Program-made: the position numbers and the translations under genes
Shown here: piece by piece, positions 9,873-17,210 of the stretch
How positions within the stretch are numbered: position 1 is the first letter of the stretch
How the letters are laid out: every line of letters starts with the position of its first letter
The notes under the pieces: generated by a model
What the model saw: only the letters and a program-made list of their open reading frames with translations
Databases searched by the model: none
Told to the model about the DNA's origin: nothing
NCBI GenBank assembly: GCA_045602925.1
Contig: JAZSCN010000041.1
Span: 144,290 to 184,289, forward strand
Length of the DNA stretch: 40,000 bases
From: Oscillospiraceae bacterium
GTDB lineage: Bacteria; Bacillota; Clostridia; Oscillospirales; Ruminococcaceae
Reading direction: 5' to 3'

Positions 9873-10274
9873 ATGTACGAATCAAAGACAGCATACTACT
9901 ACGGAACAGGCAGAAGAAAGCACTCCGTTGCAAGAGTTAGAGTTTATCCAGGCTCCGGTAACATCACAATCAACGGCAGAGCAATCGACGATTACTTTGG
10001 TCTTGAAACACTCAAGCTTATCGTTCGTCAGCCACTCGCTCTCACAAACAACACAGAAAACTTCGACGTTGTTTGCACAGTAGCAGGCGGCGGCGTTACA
10101 GGTCAGGCTGGTGCTATCAGACACGGTATCTCAAGAGCTCTCCTTCAGTTCAACGGCGAGCTCCGTCCAGAACTCAAGAAGGCTGGCTTCCTCACTCGTG
10201 ACCCAAGAATGAAGGAAAGAAAGAAGTACGGTCTCAAGGCTGCACGTCGTGCTCCACAGTTCTCAAAGAGATAA
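9873..10274 (+). CDS. rpsI: 30S ribosomal protein S9
   Basis: ...[19 protein letters not shown]...[10 protein letters not shown] prefer ATG 9873, which lies 8 nt after AAAGGAG. Confidence 0.93.
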
Positions 10275-10277
10275 TTA
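10260..10277 (+). repeat. attL core (TTCTCAAAGAGATAATTA)
   Basis: Identical to 17173-17190. It contains the last rpsI codons and the TAA stop. Confidence 0.8.
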
Positions 10278-10332
10278 TTTTATCAAGAAAATGGCTTGTT
10301 TACAGGGTTTTCGCCTTGTTGCAAGCCTTTTT

Positions 10333-10351
10333 TGATGTCCGTTTGATGTCC
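10333..10351 (+). repeat. Two direct TGATGTCC copies (candidate integrase arm-type sites, attL side)
   Basis: TGATGTCC at 10333-10340 and 10344-10351, about 55 bp inside attL. Confidence 0.55.
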
Positions 10352-10370
10352 GAACGGTCAAAAAACATAA

Positions 10371-10411
10371 AAAATCAGCGGTTAAGGTGTAAATCCTCAA
10401 CCGCTTTTTTT
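10371..10411. terminator. Bidirectional terminator at the distal end of the island operon
   Basis: AGCGGTT / AACCGCT stem flanked by an A-run and a T-run. Confidence 0.65.
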
Positions 10412-10416
10412 GTTGC

Positions 10417-10656
10417 TTATCGGTTAGTTTCGATAAAGTATTTTACAAGGTCAGGCAAAATGCCCTGCCGTGATACATCACCGATAAATGATACATCGGT
10501 TATCTTTGGCGGTGTCTTACCGTTGGTGTAAAAGTTCAAAACATCAATAATCTTTAACCGCTCTTTTCTTCCGTCATTGTATGTAATATCAGCCCACACA
10601 TCACGGAAAAATTCTTTTTCAAGCTCTGTAAGTCTTTTAATTATTGGCTTGTTCAT
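10417..10656 (-). CDS. Island small protein D (79 aa), member of the MxKxI[IL]x[KR]LxxLE family
   Basis: GAGAGGA SD 7 nt upstream. N-terminus is MNKPIIKRLTELEKE. Resembles protein C along its length. Confidence 0.65.
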   Translation of the reverse strand: MNKPIIKRLTELEKEFFRDVWADITYNDGRKERLKIIDVLNFYTNGKTPPKITDVSFIGDVSRQGILPDLVKYFIETNR

Positions 10657-10861
10657 AAGCTATCCTCTCAATTCTGTTCAATATCCTTTGCACATCGTCA
10701 AGGCTGTTCCCACTTATTACACGGATAAAGCTTGCATTTGGGCTTGCCTCAAGCTCGTCAACGGTGCATTGCTTTTCCACTCCGTCAAAGTCTGCAAGGA
10801 TAACAAGCTTATCAGGTGCTATCTGTTCAAGCTTTCTCAATCTCTCGATTATGCTTTTCAT
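10637..10861 (-). CDS. Island small protein C (74 aa), same family
   Basis: I place the start at MKSIIERLRKLEQ (ATG 10861) after a GAGGGGG SD. It overlaps the start of D by 20 nt. Confidence 0.6.
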   Translation of the reverse strand: MKSIIERLRKLEQIAPDKLVILADFDGVEKQCTVDELEASPNASFIRVISGNSLDDVQRILNRIERIAYEQANN

Positions 10862-10976
10862 CGTCTGCCCCCTCATCATCTCCGAAAATTTCTCTTTCAT
10901 ACATTGAAATATCTTCGATTTCGATTATCTCGTCATTTTCCAACATTTCAAGGCGTTTCAAAATATCCTTTGCCAT
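10827..10976 (-). CDS. Island small protein B (49 aa, acidic), same N-terminal motif
   Basis: Not in the supplied track (<60 aa). ATG 10976 follows a GCGAGGA SD. Translation is MAKDILKRLEMLENDEIIEIED.... It overlaps C by 35 nt. Confidence 0.4.
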   Translation of the reverse strand: MAKDILKRLEMLENDEIIEIEDISMYEREIFGDDEGADDEKHNREIEKA

Positions 10977-11138
10977 TTAGTCCTCGCTTTCAAAATCGTG
11001 TATATTTCTGTTTGGCTGTGGGTTTTCTATCAAGTATTGAATATAGTTCAAAAACTCTTGATGTCTTTTTTCCGTTTCCTCGTCAATGAGCTTTTGTTCT
11101 TTCATTTCCTTGAGCTTTTTCAATATGGCTTTATTCAT
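10977..11138 (-). CDS. Island small protein A (53 aa), same N-terminal motif
   Basis: Not in the track. ATG 11138 overlaps the upstream TAA (TAATG) and follows an AAGGTGAG SD. Translation is MNKAILKKLKEMKEQKLIDEE.... Its stop abuts the ATG of B. Confidence 0.55.
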   Translation of the reverse strand: MNKAILKKLKEMKEQKLIDEETEKRHQEFLNYIQYLIENPQPNRNIHDFESED

Positions 11139-11827
11139 TAGTCGCTCACCTTGATATAAAACTTTTCCGCTTCAGATGTGATTTTATCTGCCGTTTCTTC
11201 ATAAAGTCTTGCAATACCTGTTGCACCTGCGAAAACCTGTTCTTTGTCCCTGCGGTCTTTGTCTGCTCTGACGGCTCTTGTACTCCACAAAATAAGGTCG
11301 TTTATCGGTCTTATATAAGGGAATGAGGCTTCTTTACATTTGATAGCAAAACTTCCCATTTTTCTATCTATTGTGTCGCTGATATTTGCTCTTTCTTCCG
11401 CATATTTGCCGATAATTCTTAACATAGTGATATTATCAGCAAAACCATCTGCAAGGTCTATCAATTCATTATCTTTGAGAACACCGCTTTTGAGTAGTTC
11501 AAGTGTAGGCATATCAATCATTGAGGCTGTCGCTCTGTTGTACGGCTCAAAGATTTCAACACATTCTTGCTTGATTGCTTCAAATTCTGCTCTTGCTCTG
11601 TCCTCAACGCTTTCAAAAGCAATACGGAGCTGTTTCATTTCCTCATCGTGCTTGATTGAGGCTTCCTGTTTCTCTCTTGCATTACTCCAACCTCTGCGGA
11701 GTTCTTCGTTCCATTTCTTTTTACCCTCAATAAGAGCATTACCAAGTGTTACATATTCCTCTCTATATTTCGGATATGCGTTTCTTATTCTGTCTGTAAA
11801 TTCCTTAACATTTCTATACTGTGCCAT
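11138..11827 (-). CDS. Island 229-aa helical protein, unknown function
   Basis: AGGAG SD. Charged, helix-rich composition with no motif I recognise. Confidence 0.7.
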   Translation of the reverse strand: MAQYRNVKEFTDRIRNAYPKYREEYVTLGNALIEGKKKWNEELRRGWSNAREKQEASIKHDEEMKQLRIAFESVEDRARAEFEAIKQECVEIFEPYNRATASMIDMPTLELLKSGVLKDNELIDLADGFADNITMLRIIGKYAEERANISDTIDRKMGSFAIKCKEASFPYIRPINDLILWSTRAVRADKDRRDKEQVFAGATGIARLYEETADKITSEAEKFYIKVSD

Positions 11828-11848
11828 AGTTCAAAATCTCCTTATAAT

Positions 11849-12211
11849 TTAATTATTCATACTTTTTTCAAGTTCTTCAATTCTTGAAATTATGTCTGCC
11901 TGTTCGGTGTATTTCAGGCAATTTTGCAATATCAGAGCAGAGGCATTTAATCGCACCTGTGGAGCGGTGTCCGTATCTTCCATAATGCCCCTGATTGTGT
12001 CAACCGCCTTTGTCAATGTTGCTTGTAATGTATTGCAAGCCTCATTCAATACAAGAGAACGCCTGCGGTCATATTCTGCCTTGAATGTTTCGTCAGCAAG
12101 CCTATTGTAAATCGTGGTACGGCTTACGCATGAAATTTTCTCGGCTTCCGCTATGCTTCCACACGATAACAGAGCGGTCAAGATGTGTTCGTCTTTTGGT
12201 TTCAATTCCAT
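11849..12211 (-). CDS. HTH protein resembling the N-terminal DNA-binding module of small terminase subunits
   Basis: LKPKDEHILTALLSCGSIAEAEKISCVSRTTIYNRLADETFKAEYDRRR follows the pattern of TerS N-termini (LTxKQxxF...G..t.Aa..aG.S..TaY..l..p.v...i), followed by a helical oligomerisation-like tail. Confidence 0.65.
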   Translation of the reverse strand: MELKPKDEHILTALLSCGSIAEAEKISCVSRTTIYNRLADETFKAEYDRRRSLVLNEACNTLQATLTKAVDTIRGIMEDTDTAPQVRLNASALILQNCLKYTEQADIISRIEELEKSMNN

Positions 12212-12215
12212 TCAA

Positions 12216-12548
12216 TCACCCCTTATTTTGTGCGATTTTTCGCTGATATGTAAAGATTTTACCTGCTGTTTTGTCATACACTCGCAAGCCTGACGGAATA
12301 ATCTCGATTTTTATTGTATCGGTGTCAACTGATGTATAAGGCTCGGAAACGCTTTCAGAACGCTTTACACGGACGGAGCGGAAAGAGTATTCCTTATCTG
12401 CTACAAGGTCAGAAACAAGCGTTATATTGCCCTCTCGTGTGATTGTAACGCTATCACTCTGATATAGTGTTTTCGGCTCATTGTTGCACCCTGCAAACAA
12501 CATCAAACACACACATACAAGCAACGCAAAAGCAATTTTACTTTTCAT
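12216..12548 (-). CDS. Island lipoprotein (110 aa)
   Basis: Signal peptide with lipobox: MKSKIAFALLVCVCLMLFAG-C. Confidence 0.75.
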   Translation of the reverse strand: MKSKIAFALLVCVCLMLFAGCNNEPKTLYQSDSVTITREGNITLVSDLVADKEYSFRSVRVKRSESVSEPYTSVDTDTIKIEIIPSGLRVYDKTAGKIFTYQRKIAQNKG

Positions 12549-12687
12549 CTGTATTCACTCCCTTTTTGAGTTCTCGTATTTCGGCTTTTAGTCGATTGAT
12601 TTCTTTTCTTTGCTCATTCCATTTATGCTCCCATTGTTTGATTTTATCATTCAAAAGGTCTATGAGCATTTTGTCATAGTCTGTCAT
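12538..12687 (-). CDS. Island 49-aa coiled-coil-like protein
   Basis: Not in the track. A GAGGTGA SD precedes ATG 12687. Translation is MTDYDKMLIDLLNDKIKQWEHKWNEQRKEINRLKAEIRELKKGVNTDEK. Its stop overlaps the lipoprotein start. Confidence 0.45.
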   Translation of the reverse strand: MTDYDKMLIDLLNDKIKQWEHKWNEQRKEINRLKAEIRELKKGVNTDEK

Positions 12688-12692
12688 CTATT

Positions 12693-12905
12693 TCACCTCG
12701 CTAACATTTGGATTTGTTTATTATTCAAAAATTTTCGTTTGCGTATATAGTCAACGGCTTCATCATATTCAGGAAAATAATGTCCGTTTCCTGCAAACTG
12801 TACGCACCATTCAGCATAATCAGGCGGTGAATAGTCTTGTATTCTTTGCAACCACACTATACAGCCCTTATGCGTGCATATTTTCTCTTGTGATAGAATA
12901 ACCAT
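12693..12905 (-). CDS. Island 70-aa protein, unknown function
   Basis: I place the start at MVILSQEK (ATG 12905) after a GAGAGGTG SD. The longer track ORF would begin inside the iterons and has no SD. Confidence 0.55.
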   Translation of the reverse strand: MVILSQEKICTHKGCIVWLQRIQDYSPPDYAEWCVQFAGNGHYFPEYDEAVDYIRKRKFLNNKQIQMLAR

Positions 12906-12922
12906 TGTTTCACCTCTCTGTC

Positions 12923-13039
12923 GGTTACAGAGGTTACAAGAGTTACGCATTTTTCCATAGAGTATATAATCATAAATATATTATTTTATTTTTTATAGAT
13001 ACTCCATAGGATTTTACTGTAACGCCTGTAACCTGTAAC
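12923..13039. repeat. Candidate replication origin: inverted sets of GTTAC iterons flanking an AT-rich core
   Basis: GGTTACAG, GGTTACAA and AGTTACG at 12923-12947. Opposite them, CTGTAAC x3 at 13017-13039. A ~65-bp AT-rich stretch lies between, directly downstream of the replicase gene. Confidence 0.5.
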
Positions 13040-13045
13040 CGTATA

Positions 13046-15112
13046 TTAAATATGATGGACAAAATTATAATTGCGTTTCGGTAACACTCTCAATCTTTGA
13101 GTTTTGCCGTCAATCTTTCGGATTTCCGCGTTATATCCCATTTTATCAAGCACTTTTCCGATTTGAGCAGAGGAATAGGCTCGGAGTTCATCGGAGTATA
13201 ACTGCTTAAAATCTGTAACGGTCATATATAACCACTCGATTTTATACCTTGCATTATCGGATTGATTGAGAATGTCCTCAATTTCGTTTTCGCCTTTGAG
13301 TTTCTTTTCGTGATTGGCGTTTCTCTCTGCAAGTTGCTTTTGTTCAGCCTGTGTCAATCTAAATCCCTGAATATCATTCAACGCCATTTGCTCGATTTGT
13401 TTCCACAACTGCACAGCATTAAAATCACGCAAGCGGTCAAGGTCGATTTTATCAATTCTAACCGTGAGAAAACGCCTATTTCCCGTGTTATCTATAAGAA
13501 ATTCATCACTATTACAAGTACCGCAAAGGCTTGTCCGTCTTAAAGCTCGAATGTTATCTCTGGCGTACGGTCTTCTGTACTCATCAACCGAATTTGTGAT
13601 AAATGCTTTCAGGCGTTCAATATCGCTTCTGAATGTGCTTTCGATTTCGCCCATTTCAGCTATCCAACAGGACAGAGCTTTTATATAACTGTCCTTATCT
13701 CTAAAATCAATGCAAACACCCTCTTTGAAAAATTGCGGTTTTAGTGCTAACTTTCGGAAAAGAGAGGTTTTGCCAATTCCTTGTTTACCTGTGATTACAA
13801 GAACGCCGTCCGCTCCGAATGGCTCTGTTTCATCATTATGTAACAGAGATATGCTTTGCCATAACCATTTTTTAATAAGTGTACGGCTCAATTCGTCATC
13901 ATCGGCAATATGTAGAATAGAATACAATTCCGAAAGATAGTCCCTGCCGTCATATTCGCAAGAGTTCAGCAATTCAATCACAGGATTGTATCTGTTGCGG
14001 CTTGCCACTATGTCAAGGTATGCGGATATAATTTGCATATTGCACCGCTTGTAATTGTCCTGTAACTCACTATACAGAATTGCTGATATATTGGAATGCA
14101 AACGCTCTTGACTTTCGCCCTGCATACCCTCAATGTCAATAAGCTGTGTAACATCGTTTAACCGTACTGTAACACCGTTTTCGGTCAGGTAGTCAGATAA
14201 TACTTCAGGTGTAAATAAATCGCTTGTATCGTCTTTTTGAGGCTCTTTTCTTGGTCTGCCTCTGCCTTTGTAATACTCGCCCCCACACAGAGCAACAGCC
14301 TTTGATATTGTTGCTTCTCGATAGTCTGCACGCTCCCATTTTTGACGGTATAAAGCACTACCTCGAAAAGCTGTGTCAATGGCGTTTGTATCGCCTTGTA
14401 GGTAGAATGCAAGTATATTACAAAGGGCTATGTCTGCGGAGCTTTCATCGTTGTTATACGCCGATATATCGCCCCTGTCATATAAAGCAATAAACTTTGC
14501 ACCATTCTTTGATTTCCTTGCTATATCAAGTATATTTTTACTCAATCGTTCACCGCCTTTATACATATACTTTTCTATGAAATATAGGATTTCTTCGGTC
14601 TTGTCCGTTATTGTTTCGGTGTCGGATACTCTATCACCTGTAAATGTAAAATATCTGTTTGTTAATCCGCTGAAATAACATTCAAGCCCATTTTTCGGAT
14701 TTTTTTGATAATACTTTGTATCAAGCTTTTCCGCTCCGCTCTTGTTTGTGGTCTTGGGTATTCTTGACATATCGCACCTGAACAGGATATGAAAACCGCT
14801 TCCGCTCGGAGATCTTTCGATATATGTCCCCTCAAAGAGTTGCAGTATCTCATTTTGGAAAGGGTTTGACTTTGTGTGTCCGTCTGTTCCGTCAATATCA
14901 ATTCCGCAAATACCATTTGCAAACACAAAACCAATACCGCTATACTTGGGCTTTGCTTTTTCTGATACAGAATAATCATTCCAAGTTGACGGTAAATCAG
15001 TCTTTGCTTTACCGCCTGTTTTTGCGTTATATGGTATCTTTGTCGGTCTGCCGTCTTTGTCGGTTTCATAACGCCAACATAACCACACACTTTGAGTTTT
15101 CAAGTCATTCAA
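13046..15112 (-). CDS. Bifunctional primase-polymerase (PrimPol) N-domain fused to a VirE/D5-like P-loop NTPase (island replicase)
   Basis: 688 aa with a TTG start after GGCGGTG. Motifs: GIDIDG, SPSGSGFHILF and Walker A GKQGIGKTS. Confidence 0.85.
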   Translation of the reverse strand: MNDLKTQSVWLCWRYETDKDGRPTKIPYNAKTGGKAKTDLPSTWNDYSVSEKAKPKYSGIGFVFANGICGIDIDGTDGHTKSNPFQNEILQLFEGTYIERSPSGSGFHILFRCDMSRIPKTTNKSGAEKLDTKYYQKNPKNGLECYFSGLTNRYFTFTGDRVSDTETITDKTEEILYFIEKYMYKGGERLSKNILDIARKSKNGAKFIALYDRGDISAYNNDESSADIALCNILAFYLQGDTNAIDTAFRGSALYRQKWERADYREATISKAVALCGGEYYKGRGRPRKEPQKDDTSDLFTPEVLSDYLTENGVTVRLNDVTQLIDIEGMQGESQERLHSNISAILYSELQDNYKRCNMQIISAYLDIVASRNRYNPVIELLNSCEYDGRDYLSELYSILHIADDDELSRTLIKKWLWQSISLLHNDETEPFGADGVLVITGKQGIGKTSLFRKLALKPQFFKEGVCIDFRDKDSYIKALSCWIAEMGEIESTFRSDIERLKAFITNSVDEYRRPYARDNIRALRRTSLCGTCNSDEFLIDNTGNRRFLTVRIDKIDLDRLRDFNAVQLWKQIEQMALNDIQGFRLTQAEQKQLAERNANHEKKLKGENEIEDILNQSDNARYKIEWLYMTVTDFKQLYSDELRAYSSAQIGKVLDKMGYNAEIRKIDGKTQRLRVLPKRNYNFVHHI

Positions 15113-15127
15113 TAACTGTTCACCGCC

Positions 15128-15316
15128 TTACTGCTTAACTGTTAAGCTCTGCAACATTTCAACGGTCTTTTCATAATTGATTAGTGCCTTTTTTCCGATA
15201 TAGAGAACAGGCAACTTGTTTTGTTTTACCATCAATCTGATTGCGTGTTCTGTGAGTATTCCTGTTTTCGCAAGCTCTCTCACCGTCATCATTGTTACTT
15301 TGTTTTCCTGCGTCAT
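15128..15316 (-). CDS. Small HTH DNA-binding protein (excisionase/MerR-like HTH_17 type)
   Basis: I place the start at MTQENKVTMMTVRELAKTGILTEHAIRLMVKQNKLPVLYIGKK after an AAAGGAG SD. 62 aa. Confidence 0.75.
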   Translation of the reverse strand: MTQENKVTMMTVRELAKTGILTEHAIRLMVKQNKLPVLYIGKKALINYEKTVEMLQSLTVKQ

Positions 15317-15345
15317 TGTTTTTACTCCTTTACAAATATTTTTTT

Positions 15346-15383
15346 GCAAAAGAAAAGAGAACAACGTTTTTTGCGTTGCTCTC
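15346..15383 (-). terminator. Intrinsic terminator inside the island operon leader, just upstream of the HTH gene SD
   Basis: Minus-strand RNA: GAGAGCAACG-caaaaaa-CGTTGTTCTC, 10 bp with one G-U pair, followed by TTTTCTTTT. The same position would be an A-C mismatch in the plus sense. Confidence 0.7.
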
Positions 15384-15483
15384 TAAAAACAAAGAGGACA
15401 ACACAAAATAGAATACACCAAAAAGGTGTCGACAAGCTCGTGAGTATTACGCTCGTTGGCTCGTTCTATTCTGTGTTCCCCTC
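15384..15483 (-). promoter_or_regulatory. Long leader hairpin with a U-tract (second terminator-like structure)
   Basis: 20-nt arms at 15394-15413 and 15464-15483. They pair 19/20 including 2 G-U in the minus sense, but only 17/20 in the plus sense. On the minus strand TTTGTTTTT follows. Confidence 0.55.
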
Positions 15484-15686
15484 ATACATTTTACGTTTTA
15501 TTTAATGTGGTTTAACTATCCACTATGTAGCCCATCTATTTTTTGTCGGAAAGGAAGCGACAATTTTTCGGTAAAACACTCGTAATAGCAATGATACTTG
15601 ATTGTATCAATATTTACCGCCTAATTTTACGACATTGGGGTTGTCGTTTGGGAACGAAAACTGTTCAATATTCTTTTGTTATTTGT

Positions 15687-15715
15687 ATTATATCACAATA
15701 TTTTTTATTTGTCAA
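15687..15715 (-). promoter_or_regulatory. Consensus sigma-A promoter driving the island minus-strand operon
   Basis: On the minus strand: TTGACA, a 17-nt spacer, then TATAAT. Confidence 0.7.
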
Positions 15716-15822
15716 GCGTTTTGTCTTAAAAAATACAATATATTGTGTTTTTGTTGGTTTGGTTGAAAAATGTATATACAATATATACGATTTTGTTGCA
15801 TTATATATAGCATATTATCTTA

Positions 15823-15851
15823 TTGACAAATTATAAGAGATAATATATAAT
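15823..15851 (+). promoter_or_regulatory. Consensus sigma-A promoter for int
   Basis: TTGACA (15823-15828), a 17-nt spacer, then TATAAT (15846-15851), 40 nt before the int ATG. Confidence 0.7.
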
Positions 15852-15891
15852 AATATAAAACGATATTAAAAGATATTAGAGAGGTGAAAAA

Positions 15892-17031
15892 ATGGCAACA
15901 ATAAATAAGCGTGGCAACACATTTCAAATTGTGGTTTCTCTCGGTCTTGATGTGAACGGAAAGAAAATCAGAAAAACAACTACATATAAACCGCCTGAAA
16001 ATACTACACCGAAAAAGGCTGAAAAACTCGCACAAGAGTTTGCAGTTGAATTTGAGCGTAAATGTAGAGGTCTTTCCTCATTGAATGAAAATATGCGGTT
16101 TTCTGAAATGGCTGAATGGTTTATTGATAACTACGCAAAAAACAAGTTAAAGCCGATAACCGCCTACAACTACGAAAAGCAAATAAAAAACAATTTGCTC
16201 CCTGAATTAGGAAACATCAAACTCAAAGATTTTACCCCTGCAAAGATTACAGCGTTTTTCAAGACTCGTACTTATCAGCCTGCGACTTGTCGCAAAGTAT
16301 ATGTTATTTTGCAAAGTGTTTTTGCTCGTGCTGTGGAGCAAGGTTTCATCAAAGAAACGCCCTGCACAAAGGCGGTTATATTGCCAAAAGCGGAAACAGC
16401 AAAAGAAAAAAAGCCTTTTCTTGACGAAAATCAAGCAAAAGACTTGTTAAAAATGGTTGAGGATAACACACAATTCAACCGCATTATAAAAGTATTGTTA
16501 TTTACAGGTATGCGTTCGGGTGAGTGCTTGGCTCTCCGTTGGCAAGATATAGACTTTGAAAATAAAACAATACACATTGAAAACACTTTAACAGATGTGG
16601 GCGGTAAACATTGGCTTCAACCGCCTAAAACAGCAACAAGTAACAGATATATTGCTTTATCTGATATTTTGGCTGATATATTCAGAGAACAGAAAAAGTA
16701 TAATGATGAAAAGTTGAGCAAACTCGGAAAATTATATACTTATCCTGAAATGGTATTTACAACAGAGAGCGGAAATTTTGTTGATAGGTCAGGACTCAAC
16801 ACACAATTCAGACGATTTGTAAAAGGTACAGACTTTGACTTTATCACTTTGCATAGTTTACGCCATTGCAACGCAACACTTTTGATAAACAGCGGTATTG
16901 ACTTAAAAATTGTAAGTGAGTTGCTCGGTCATTCAGATGTATCAACCACAGCGAATGTATATGCAGATGTTTTGAAAAGCTCAAAGGCAAAAGTTGCTGA
17001 TTTGATTTCCTTAAAACTGAATGGAAATTGA
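15892..17031 (+). CDS. int: Tyrosine recombinase / phage-type integrase with N-terminal arm-binding domain
   Basis: 379 aa. Motifs: R in LLFTGMRSGE, HSLRHCNATLL, LGHSDVSTTANVYADV. N-terminus MATINKRGNTFQIVVSLG is arm-type. GAGAGGTG SD. Confidence 0.92.
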   Translation: MATINKRGNTFQIVVSLGLDVNGKKIRKTTTYKPPENTTPKKAEKLAQEFAVEFERKCRGLSSLNENMRFSEMAEWFIDNYAKNKLKPITAYNYEKQIKNNLLPELGNIKLKDFTPAKITAFFKTRTYQPATCRKVYVILQSVFARAVEQGFIKETPCTKAVILPKAETAKEKKPFLDENQAKDLLKMVEDNTQFNRIIKVLLFTGMRSGECLALRWQDIDFENKTIHIENTLTDVGGKHWLQPPKTATSNRYIALSDILADIFREQKKYNDEKLSKLGKLYTYPEMVFTTESGNFVDRSGLNTQFRRFVKGTDFDFITLHSLRHCNATLLINSGIDLKIVSELLGHSDVSTTANVYADVLKSSKAKVADLISLKLNGN

Positions 17032-17056
17032 TGTCCGTGATGTCCTTTTGATGTCC
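17029..17056 (+). repeat. Three direct TGATGTCC copies (candidate integrase arm-type sites, attR side)
   Basis: TGATGTCC at 17029-17036, 17038-17045 and 17049-17056. The run starts in the int stop codon and has the same orientation as the left copies. Confidence 0.55.
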
Positions 17057-17172
17057 GAAAATACAAGAGGCTATTGCAATTTACAAAAAGTTATGATACA
17101 ATAATCAAGGAAAAGCCTTATAATATCGGACTTTTCAAAACGATACAAAACACTATAAAACAGCGTTCTTAT

Positions 17173-17190
17173 TTCTCAAAGAGATAATTA
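17173..17190 (+). repeat. attR core (TTCTCAAAGAGATAATTA)
   Basis: Identical to 10260-10277. It is a duplicated rpsI 3' end with no rpsI body upstream. Confidence 0.8.
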
Positions 17191-17210
17191 CATTTTATTG
17201 TGTTATCAAA

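Follow-up and report, generated by a model that had tools for sequence, protein, structure and literature searches.

The 40,000-nucleotide (nt) stretch analyzed here (the window, from contig JAZSCN010000041.1 of an Oscillospiraceae bacterium) carries a 6.9-kb satellite-like island in which a putative excisionase gene and a replication gene lie behind a non-coding cassette: a consensus promoter, a long folded leader, and two tandem terminators, T1 and T2. Among sister islands this cassette is exchanged for genes of an XRE repressor or a DUF6076 protein, its sequence is constrained, and its terminators are built for the minus-sense RNA. We propose that the cassette works in cis as an RNA attenuator, riboswitch-like in its design and off by default, and serves as the master off-switch of the satellite, a reading to which we assign a probability of about 0.55. 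In this model, the promoter would be strong and largely unregulated, T1 and T2 would stop most transcripts to leave an RNA of ~300 to 335 nt, the excision and replication genes would be off by default, and induction of the island would need antitermination.

A protein-free cassette in the repressor slot

The unit in question can be delimited by comparison with its relatives.

15345-15888, unstranded: swappable protein-free regulatory cassette of 544 bp, with two divergent promoters, the leader, and two terminators, bounded by homology breaks against sister island L030

About 50 related islands were collected via relatives of the primase, exact copies and close homologues of the 62-amino-acid (aa) protein encoded by the first gene of the operon, and exact copies of the integrase. 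Against L030, an island of the XRE type, homology with the window stops at 15889 and resumes at 15344, and what fills the slot between these points differs from island to island. L030, L059, and L064 carry a 217-aa XRE/cI-like repressor there, with its own GTTACA-type operators, and in L059 and L064 the 62-aa protein behind that repressor cassette is identical to the window's. The slot is taken up by a ~300-aa DUF6076 protein plus a small helix-turn-helix (HTH) gene in L032 and L033, as well as in most islands whose integrase is identical to the window's, and the more distant related islands all carry XRE repressors. The RNA cassette was found in 14 loci (the window, L029, L055 to L058, L060 to L063, L065, L071, L079, and L104), all from ENA, Logan, and NCBI assemblies and reached through neighboring proteins. 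These loci represent nine distinct sequences, hereafter the nine variants, on three replicase backbones and beside at least five different flanking host genes, and in every one the cassette abuts the ribosome-binding site of the operon. The RNA cassette shares no sequence with the repressor cassettes, and no gene among the compared islands is specific to it.

A preliminary description of this DNA had seen no repressor gene and no credible CI/Stl-like open reading frame (ORF) in the intergenic region, and we concur: no ORF of at least 30 aa is kept across the variants in the intergenic region 15317-15891, and Pfam, PHROG, and profile matches to the island's proteins detected no HTH repressor anywhere in its 6.9 kb. 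The same description had named homologous islands with a protein repressor and without the hairpins as the finding that would speak against it. Islands of exactly this kind exist (L030, L059, L064, L032, and L033), so that, formally, this case has occurred; the regulatory role itself is left standing. Because the repressors of the sister islands amount to a cassette swap, and because 14 loci keep the leader under strong constraint, we place the leader in the functional slot of the repressor.

Beyond these 14 loci, the leader DNA had no real match in about 860 sampled genomes (61 relatives, plus 400 each from the family and the order). The cassette had no match in a phage database and no copy in pattern scans of IMG/VR or of JGI metagenomes, where a single chance match (L095) was seen.

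Anatomy of the promoter and leader

The features of the cassette and of the gene immediately behind it are listed below. Leader positions are counted from a predicted start at 15680 (nt 1), which gives a leader of ~335 nt to the end of the T2 tail; segments 1 and 2 are the 5' and 3' arms of T1, and segments 3 and 4 those of T2.

15823-15851, plus strand: int promoter, TTGACA-17-TATAAT, a 12/12 match that is kept in the variants
15733-15786, minus strand: two conserved ~25-nt boxes sharing ATATATTGTAT (direct repeat D1), conserved blocks in variable intergenic DNA
15687-15715, minus strand: leader promoter, TTGACA-17-TATAAT with an extended -10 (TGTGATATAAT), a 12/12 match with TG before the -10
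15650-15655 (nt 26-31), minus strand: segment 0 (GUUCCC), predicted 5' strand of helix P1, pairing with the T1 5' arm at nt 201-206 (15480-15475)
15629-15647 (nt 34-52), minus strand: hairpin H1 (ACGACA/UGUCGU), from the fold and compensatory pairs
15569-15620 (nt 61-112), minus strand: branched hairpin H2, with closing stem CGGUAAA/UUUUACCG and a variable apex, from the fold
15543-15563 (nt 118-138), minus strand: hairpin H3 with a CU-rich loop, CUUCCUUUC, from the fold
15507-15523 (nt 158-174), minus strand: hairpin H4 (GUGG/CCAC), -2.3 kcal/mol, from the fold; lies within the leader's most conserved stretch
15385-15483, minus strand: terminator T1, a 91-nt hairpin at 15483-15393 (nt 198-288) of -39 kcal/mol with a U-tract, UUUGUUUU, at 15392-15385
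15369-15408, minus strand: alternative hairpin 2:3 (T1 3' arm with T2 5' arm), putative T2 antiterminator, the minimum free energy (MFE) fold of segments 2 to 4
15346-15384, minus strand: terminator T2, a hairpin at 15384-15355 (nt 297-326) of -14.4 kcal/mol with a U-tract, UUUUCUUUU, at 15354-15346, from the terminator scan
15128-15330, minus strand: Shine-Dalgarno sequence (SD; 15330-15325) and first operon gene, for a 62-aa putative excisionase/Cox-like winged-helix protein, from sub-threshold matches

Within 8.5 kb there are just two 12/12 promoters, that of the leader and the divergent one of int, and the -35, the -10, and the TG of the leader promoter are identical in 9/9 variants. Promoters of the same design precede housekeeping leaders in related genomes, and the short BLAST matches found there are ordinary strong promoters of the clade; the leader promoter therefore looks like a strong, host-type promoter and not like an operator-controlled one. 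The motif ATATTGTG in the promoter spacer was considered as an operator and dropped, since its short matches are these same generic promoters. Between the two divergent promoters, the conserved boxes (15733-15746 and 15776-15786) lie 43 bp apart, centered about -60 and -101 from the predicted start. One of them is a perfect palindrome (ACAATATATTGT), variable spacers surround both, and they are only partly kept in L079. These boxes could bind an unseen regulator.

At the other end of the leader, the arms of T1 lie at 15483-15464 and 15413-15394 and are followed by the tail UUUGUUUUU. In variant L057, where T1 has a short loop, T1 and T2 are both flagged as canonical terminators (3 found versus 0.3 expected). 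Only 17 nt separate the U-tract of T2 from the SD, so that the operon has no promoter of its own; with no promoter downstream of T2, its expression must pass T1 and T2 from the consensus promoter. On these points the preliminary description fares well. The perfect TTGACA-17-TATAAT that it placed on the minus strand at 15715-15687, the two terminator-like hairpins with their coordinates, and the smaller hairpins that it put at 15629-15646 and 15544-15564 (H1 at 15647-15629 and H3 at 15563-15543 in our fold) are all recovered; its first gene, said to start at 15316, has an ATG there behind the SD AAGGAG (leader nt 351-356; AUG at nt 365); and its proposal that operon expression needs terminator read-through is supported.

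That description had further argued that the structures are strand-specific by virtue of G-U pairs. This too is what we see, as three pairs (202:283, 210:275, and 302:320) exist in the minus-sense RNA only. The leader folds at -98.3 kcal/mol in the minus sense (z = -5.8) and at -90.8 kcal/mol in the plus sense (z = -4.4). Could the inverted repeats instead act as DNA, in packaging, in recombination, or as a single-strand initiation site, or be relics of a lost repressor module, their folds being incidental? That the plus strand also folds well, and that both arms of the T1 base are invariant rather than covarying, would fit a role as DNA, whereas minus-sense RNA is favored by the way the promoter faces, by the U-tract behind each hairpin, and by the asymmetry of the G-U pairs. 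A relic, for its part, would not be expected to remain constrained across three replicase backbones, and one derived from a repressor cassette is hard to reconcile with the lack of any sequence shared with such cassettes. We regard this as the least likely of the readings considered here.

The loop of H3 raises a different prospect. CUUCCUUUC is complementary both to the SD (AAAGGAG) and to GAGGGGAA of T1, with predicted duplexes of -8.9 and -10.8 kcal/mol, and this loop and that of H4 are conserved in sequence as well as in structure. The unit from promoter to terminator might thus be an independent gene for an abundant trans-acting small RNA (sRNA) of ~300 nt, whose H3 loop targets the SDs of helper, host, or island mRNAs, the operon being fed by incidental read-through. 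A consensus promoter followed by strong terminators is the usual layout of an sRNA gene, and satellites with regulatory sRNAs are known, such as the SviR of PLE (bioRxiv 10.1101/2022.04.08.487710). However, the host genome offers no extended complementary target (genome-wide similar or complementary matches stand at chance level), the unit sits at the same place in 14/14 loci, against the ribosome-binding site of a promoterless operon, and a change in the H3 loop of L057 weakens the SD pairing. We therefore hold an independent sRNA gene to be improbable as the full account, while noting that such a role can coexist with the attenuator reading.

The region around the start codon offers further complementarity. 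The T2 U-tract can pair with the SD region (15354-15325) over 12 bp, including three G-U pairs, and the T1 U-tract is complementary at 11/12 positions to the spacer and AUG (15392-15314), a pairing that is broken in L057 and treated as weak. Judging from these predicted U-tract pairings, read-through RNA may also be translationally masked.

Several other candidates within the leader were considered. An ORF of seven codons (MYEGNTE-stop; 15490-15467, nt 191-214) overlies the T1 5' arm and is kept in all variants, with AUG changed to GUG in L057 and L071 and a synonymous GGG-to-GGU change in four variants. It is the only conserved mini-ORF and has no SD; a leader peptide was rejected, and we take the ORF to be a by-product of the conserved T1 arm. 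Long-range helices that close the 5' and 3' ends in the full-length MFE fold are broken in variants and were set aside, as was a T-box resemblance of AAUUAGGCGGUA, which is not conserved in variants and has no Rfam T-box match. A search of 15100-16000 against Rfam 15, at the gathering score and at E<=10, returned only chance-level matches on the T2 hairpin; beyond chance, no riboswitch, T-box, or other cis-regulatory family matched at E<=10.

Constraint on sequence and structure

How strongly is the leader held? Compared with L029, L055, and L056, the window's leader is 98.1 to 98.4% identical, while in the same pairs identity stands at 89 to 94% for third codon positions (in int, the 62-aa gene, and the primase) and at 85 to 91% for the upstream spacer. 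Against the more divergent L079, the leader is still 90% identical, third positions are 61 to 65% identical, and the spacer upstream of the promoter no longer aligns. Over its first 19 nt the leader does not vary, except for one change in L079. These identities suggest strong purifying selection on DNA that encodes no protein or, as a less simple account, that the cassette was transferred recently.

With a family this shallow, in which the majority of pairs are invariant, formal covariation is weak. RNAalifold reported no covariation on a MAFFT alignment that is one base out of register in the class-B 5' region; pair changes were scored on a hand-corrected alignment of the nine variants. On that alignment, H1 has two compensatory pairs (A-U to U-A and C-G to G-C), a single change from C-G to U-G, and a single A-C mismatch. 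H2, H3, T1, and T2 together have seven changes on one side of a pair by which, in the minus-sense RNA, pairing is preserved or gained as G-U or A-U, and one that gives A-C; H3 has two U-A to U-G changes, and T2 a G-U to A-U change in L057. The H4 stem is invariant in the nine variants, and the T1 base is invariant at 17/19 positions in all of them. Four variants turn the G/G mismatch at position 203:282 of T1 into a U-G pair, and in three the top pair, 216:269, is lost. Larger rearrangements occur in L057 and L071, in which an unrelated hairpin takes the place of the H2 apex on a preserved closing stem and the 46-nt apex of T1 is deleted, leaving a textbook terminator with a stem of 18 bp, a loop of 7 nt, and a T-run; T1 and T2 are both called by the terminator scan in these two variants.

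The compensatory changes also bear on the earlier suggestion that H1 and H3, with their matching arms, swap partners. In four variants the changes within H1 keep H1 intact and break its cross-pairing with the unchanged H3, which contradicts the swap.

A predicted four-segment switch

Two sets of alternative pairings lead us to posit that the leader is more than a pair of terminators. The first is P1, in which GUU[C/A]CC (nt 26-31) pairs with GG[G/U]AAC (nt 201-206). In every variant this helix outranks all others that the first 60 nt can form with the T1 5' arm, and four variants have a compensatory C29A/G203U change. When the columns of the 5' block were shuffled, 13/1000 trials reached the observed strength of the conserved duplex (p=0.013). 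In a nascent transcript that ends just past the T1 5' arm, the six P1 pairs have predicted probabilities of 0.82 to 0.99 in four variant classes; once the T1 3' arm is present, they vanish from the predicted fold.

The second set involves the terminators themselves. The 3' arms and tails of T1 and T2 are near-duplicates (15/19 nt identical), and the T1 3' arm can therefore pair with the T2 5' arm. With the T1 5' arm unavailable, this 2:3 hairpin is the MFE fold in 9/9 variants, at -15.3 to -17.8 kcal/mol versus -12.8 to -14.9 kcal/mol for T2, and because it has no U-tract it would act as an antiterminator. The predicted energies thus describe a mutually exclusive 2:3 antiterminator and 3:4 terminator, which is the arrangement of a four-segment attenuator. 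The switch as a whole is a thermodynamic prediction plus one covarying pair.

The repetition of the T1 and T2 arms invites comparison with satellite phage P4, in whose immunity a processed CI RNA acts in trans and termination is Rho dependent. Like P4, the island is a satellite with no classical repressor protein, for which we propose control at the RNA level through termination in the leader of the replication operon. On a strict version of this idea, which develops a resemblance noted in the preliminary description, a processed piece of the leader would pair in trans with repeated boxes on nascent leaders, cause premature termination, and confer immunity to incoming copies; the near-identical 3' arms and tails, together with similar 5' arms, could be read as such boxes in a seqA/seqB/seqC layout. 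Yet no Rfam match to C4 or IsrK appears even at E<=10, both stops are self-sufficient intrinsic terminators for which no trans RNA is needed, no complementary target lies elsewhere in the genome, and the H1/H3 swap is contradicted by the changes within H1. P4-type immunity is thus very improbable here, and of the earlier interpretation as a whole, the required read-through and the missing repressor stand, while the P4-like mechanism and the H1/H3 swap do not.

Based on these pairings, we can outline how a default-off attenuator might work. A host-type sigma-A promoter would fire into the ~335-nt leader, most transcripts would end at T1 or T2, and the island would stay silent. Segment 0 could pair with the T1 5' arm and so close a domain of ~180 nt, comprising H1 to H4, much as P1 closes an "ON" riboswitch. 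If P1 were held while RNA polymerase passes, T1 could not form; the freed T1 3' arm would then pair with the T2 5' arm, T2 would fail, and transcription would enter the operon. P1 could be held by a protein from the helper phage or the host, by an RNA, or by a small molecule. A processive antiterminator encoded by the helper and acting on the same leader would be an equally simple route to opening it.

Several points weigh against this model. P1 rests on one compensatory event and on a shuffle test with p ~0.01 to 0.03, within nine variants that fall into about four classes. At -39 kcal/mol, T1 would easily displace a P1 of 6 to 7 bp unless the latter were stabilized, and in T1 of the L057 type the arms are only ~7 nt apart, which leaves little time for a kinetic decision. 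Complementarity between the T1 3' arm and the T2 5' arm is automatic if T2 is a duplicate of the T1 base, and selection is not needed to explain it. Some of the leader's high identity could stem from the cassette having moved between islands recently and not from purifying selection, and the conserved boxes upstream of the promoter hint at some DNA-binding regulator. Finally, the start site, the 3' ends, and the efficiency of termination are predictions.

What might open the leader?

In ranking the possibilities, we put the P1 switch first, processive antitermination second, the trans-acting sRNA and P4-type immunity after them, and a role at the DNA level last.

The most specific form of the P1 switch is that the leader is a new riboswitch-like sensor, in which the P1-closed H1-to-H4 domain binds a small molecule, RNA, or phage protein that signals helper infection, and a single binding event defeats both terminators as P1 competes with T1 and the 2:3 hairpin with T2. 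We advance this only tentatively. In "ON" riboswitches and attenuators such as the pbuE adenine riboswitch and the trp leader, the 3' strand of P1 is the terminator 5' arm, and 1:2, 2:3, and 3:4 pairings exclude one another. The window's leader resembles them in that the predicted 3' strand of P1 is the T1 5' arm and in its mutually exclusive pairings. It departs from them in matching no known aptamer class in Rfam, in lacking a credible leader peptide, and in opening its series with a hairpin that is a terminator in its own right.

Alternatively, could the alternative pairings be idle? A default-off leader might be opened by processive antitermination of the Q, N, or put type, supplied by the helper and loaded at the promoter or on the first 20 nt. 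Such a mechanism classically acts on two terminators in tandem behind a promoter that looks constitutive. In the late leader of phage lambda, the constitutive promoter PR' makes a 6S RNA that is terminated at tR', and antitermination by Q opens the downstream genes. The parallel with the window lies in a strong promoter, a short terminated RNA, and downstream genes that, in our case by proposal, are reached after antitermination; unlike PR', the window's promoter is followed by two terminators and a large folded domain, and the genes controlled would be those for satellite excision and replication. The near-invariance of the first 19 nt would suit a loading site, and with no island gene specific to the RNA cassette, the factor must be external. 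On the other hand, no Q, N, or ConAn-type gene and no known RNA element was found, no helper phage was identified, and both the compensatory change in P1 and the conserved multi-hairpin domain would be left unexplained. We consider this route rather unlikely; were it correct, induction of the island would be tied to the helper's late-gene switch, as with lambda PR', the 6S RNA, and tR'.

Relation to described systems

For the attenuator reading, the zipper-type attenuator of pLS20 is the closest described anatomy. In the conjugation operon of that plasmid, the attenuator cATT forms its antiterminator by default, and a long stem extends into the terminator, the 3' stem of the upstream hairpin being complementary to the terminator's 5' stem and loop (PMC13401043). 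In both systems a Gram-positive mobile element carries a long 5' leader with mutually exclusive terminator and antiterminator folds, and both run through a weak hairpin, a long imperfect stem-loop, and an intrinsic terminator before the first gene (here H4, T1, and T2, at -2.3, -39, and -14.4 kcal/mol). There are, however, clear differences: the long stem here is itself a terminator with its own U-tract, the alternative pairings are those of segment 0 with the T1 5' arm and of the T1 3' arm with the T2 5' arm, the leader is not followed by ConAn genes, and the sequences are not similar. A zipper-like extension of T1 into T2 was considered as well and is not predicted, as variant folds show at most pairing of A-tract with U-tract at the base of T1 and nothing that extends as far as the T2 5' arm.

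At the level of the whole element, the appropriate comparison is with the phage-inducible chromosomal islands (PICIs) of Gram-positive bacteria, as defined in PMC6092414, and with SaPIs, the pathogenicity islands of Staphylococcus aureus, and their master repressor Stl (Rpr). PICIs so defined carry a gene for hijacking packaging (terS or similar), lack genes for virions and lysis, and are induced and transferred by a helper phage. The window's island resembles these in having int at one end and att repeats at a specific site, a divergent operon with an xis-like gene (on sub-threshold matches) and a primase/helicase module that is transcribed away from int, and perhaps in a small-terminase-like gene, with no virion genes found; its sister islands have the canonical layout, with repressor beside int and xis beside primase. 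It differs in that the window and 13 further loci have no repressor gene and hold a non-coding cassette of promoter, leader, and terminators in its slot, and in that the island is only 6.9 kb long. As judged from this gene content, the layout is that of a PICI-type phage satellite minus the repressor gene.

The island and its family

The window lies in a 2.17-Mb Clostridia genome, and the closest relatives that bear the island are metagenome-assembled genomes from the ruminant gut labeled Acutalibacteraceae, Ruminococcus, or Clostridia. The remaining features of the island are as follows.

10260-17190, unstranded: satellite-like island of 6.9 kb, with 18-nt perfect direct repeats at both ends
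15892-17031, plus strand: tyrosine integrase of 379 aa (Pfam Phage_integrase, E=1e-29; PHROG 1)
13046-15112, minus strand: PrimPol-type primase fused to a VapE/D5-like helicase, 688 aa (Pfam VapE-like, E=6e-51)

The att repeats (repeat family D8; 10260-10277 and 17173-17190) are perfect over 18 nt and overlap the 3' end of rpsI, which, like rplM, was assigned by Pfam. Homology with the sister islands stops at ~17189-17199, matching this island end. The minus-strand operon runs from the 62-aa gene through the 688-aa primase-helicase and several small ORFs to a small-terminase-like protein. Matches of the 62-aa protein are all sub-threshold (TIGR01764, E=0.003; Phage_Cox, E=0.036). The primase-helicase also matches NrS1-1 HBD and PHROG primase and helicase families, and the terminase-like product, from a 120-aa ORF, matches PHROG 2538 (small terminase; E=5e-7) and no Pfam family above the cut-off. 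No virion or structural genes were found in the island. Near both of its ends are TGATGTCC repeats (family D3; 10333-10354 and 17038-17059), which are candidate arm-type sites for the integrase.

The wider distribution of these genes has its own interest. The integrase recurs as a 100% identical protein in the assembly collection (232 blocks, among them loci L097 to L106 and a Hadza human-gut sample). The host genes downstream of it are many and varied, and it is combined with at least three alternatives for the regulatory cassette (DUF6076, XRE, and the RNA leader); this distribution points to a very mobile, mosaic family of islands. In sister island L031 (1026-2591), a 521-aa serine recombinase next to a 315-aa protein takes the place of the tyrosine integrase, the primase operon being the same, and the integration module is therefore swappable as well. 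The DUF6076 protein (~300 aa; L032 1595-2515, L033 2568-3488, and L097 to L105 at ~630-1517) has a CxxC...C zinc-ribbon-like motif and lies directly upstream of int. It is probably co-expressed with int in most islands of the family, and, as far as gene order tells, it is in the position of a master regulator.

Implications

To our knowledge, all described Gram-positive PICI-type satellites are silenced by a repressor protein that is inactivated by a protein of the helper phage, and this interaction between repressor and helper protein defines which phages a satellite can exploit. Here, one island backbone, recognized by an identical integrase or an identical first operon gene, comes with three interchangeable control cassettes, and one of the three is free of protein. 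What is new, on our best reading, is that leader-attenuator control is placed where PICI-type satellites normally keep their master repressor. If the leader is a sensor, RNA would do the job of the Stl-type master repressors.

The natural cassette swap also provides an experimental handle, given that islands that differ only in their cassette can be compared, and a leader of this modest length suits in vitro transcription and structure probing. Should the RNA cassette indeed be the off-switch, these satellites would sense their helper, or simply gate their replication, through RNA folding and termination; the logic would then be a different one, as would the rules that govern helper range. In that case, attenuator-type control, as found in conjugative plasmids, integrative and conjugative elements, lambda, and P4, would extend to the satellites of gut Clostridia.

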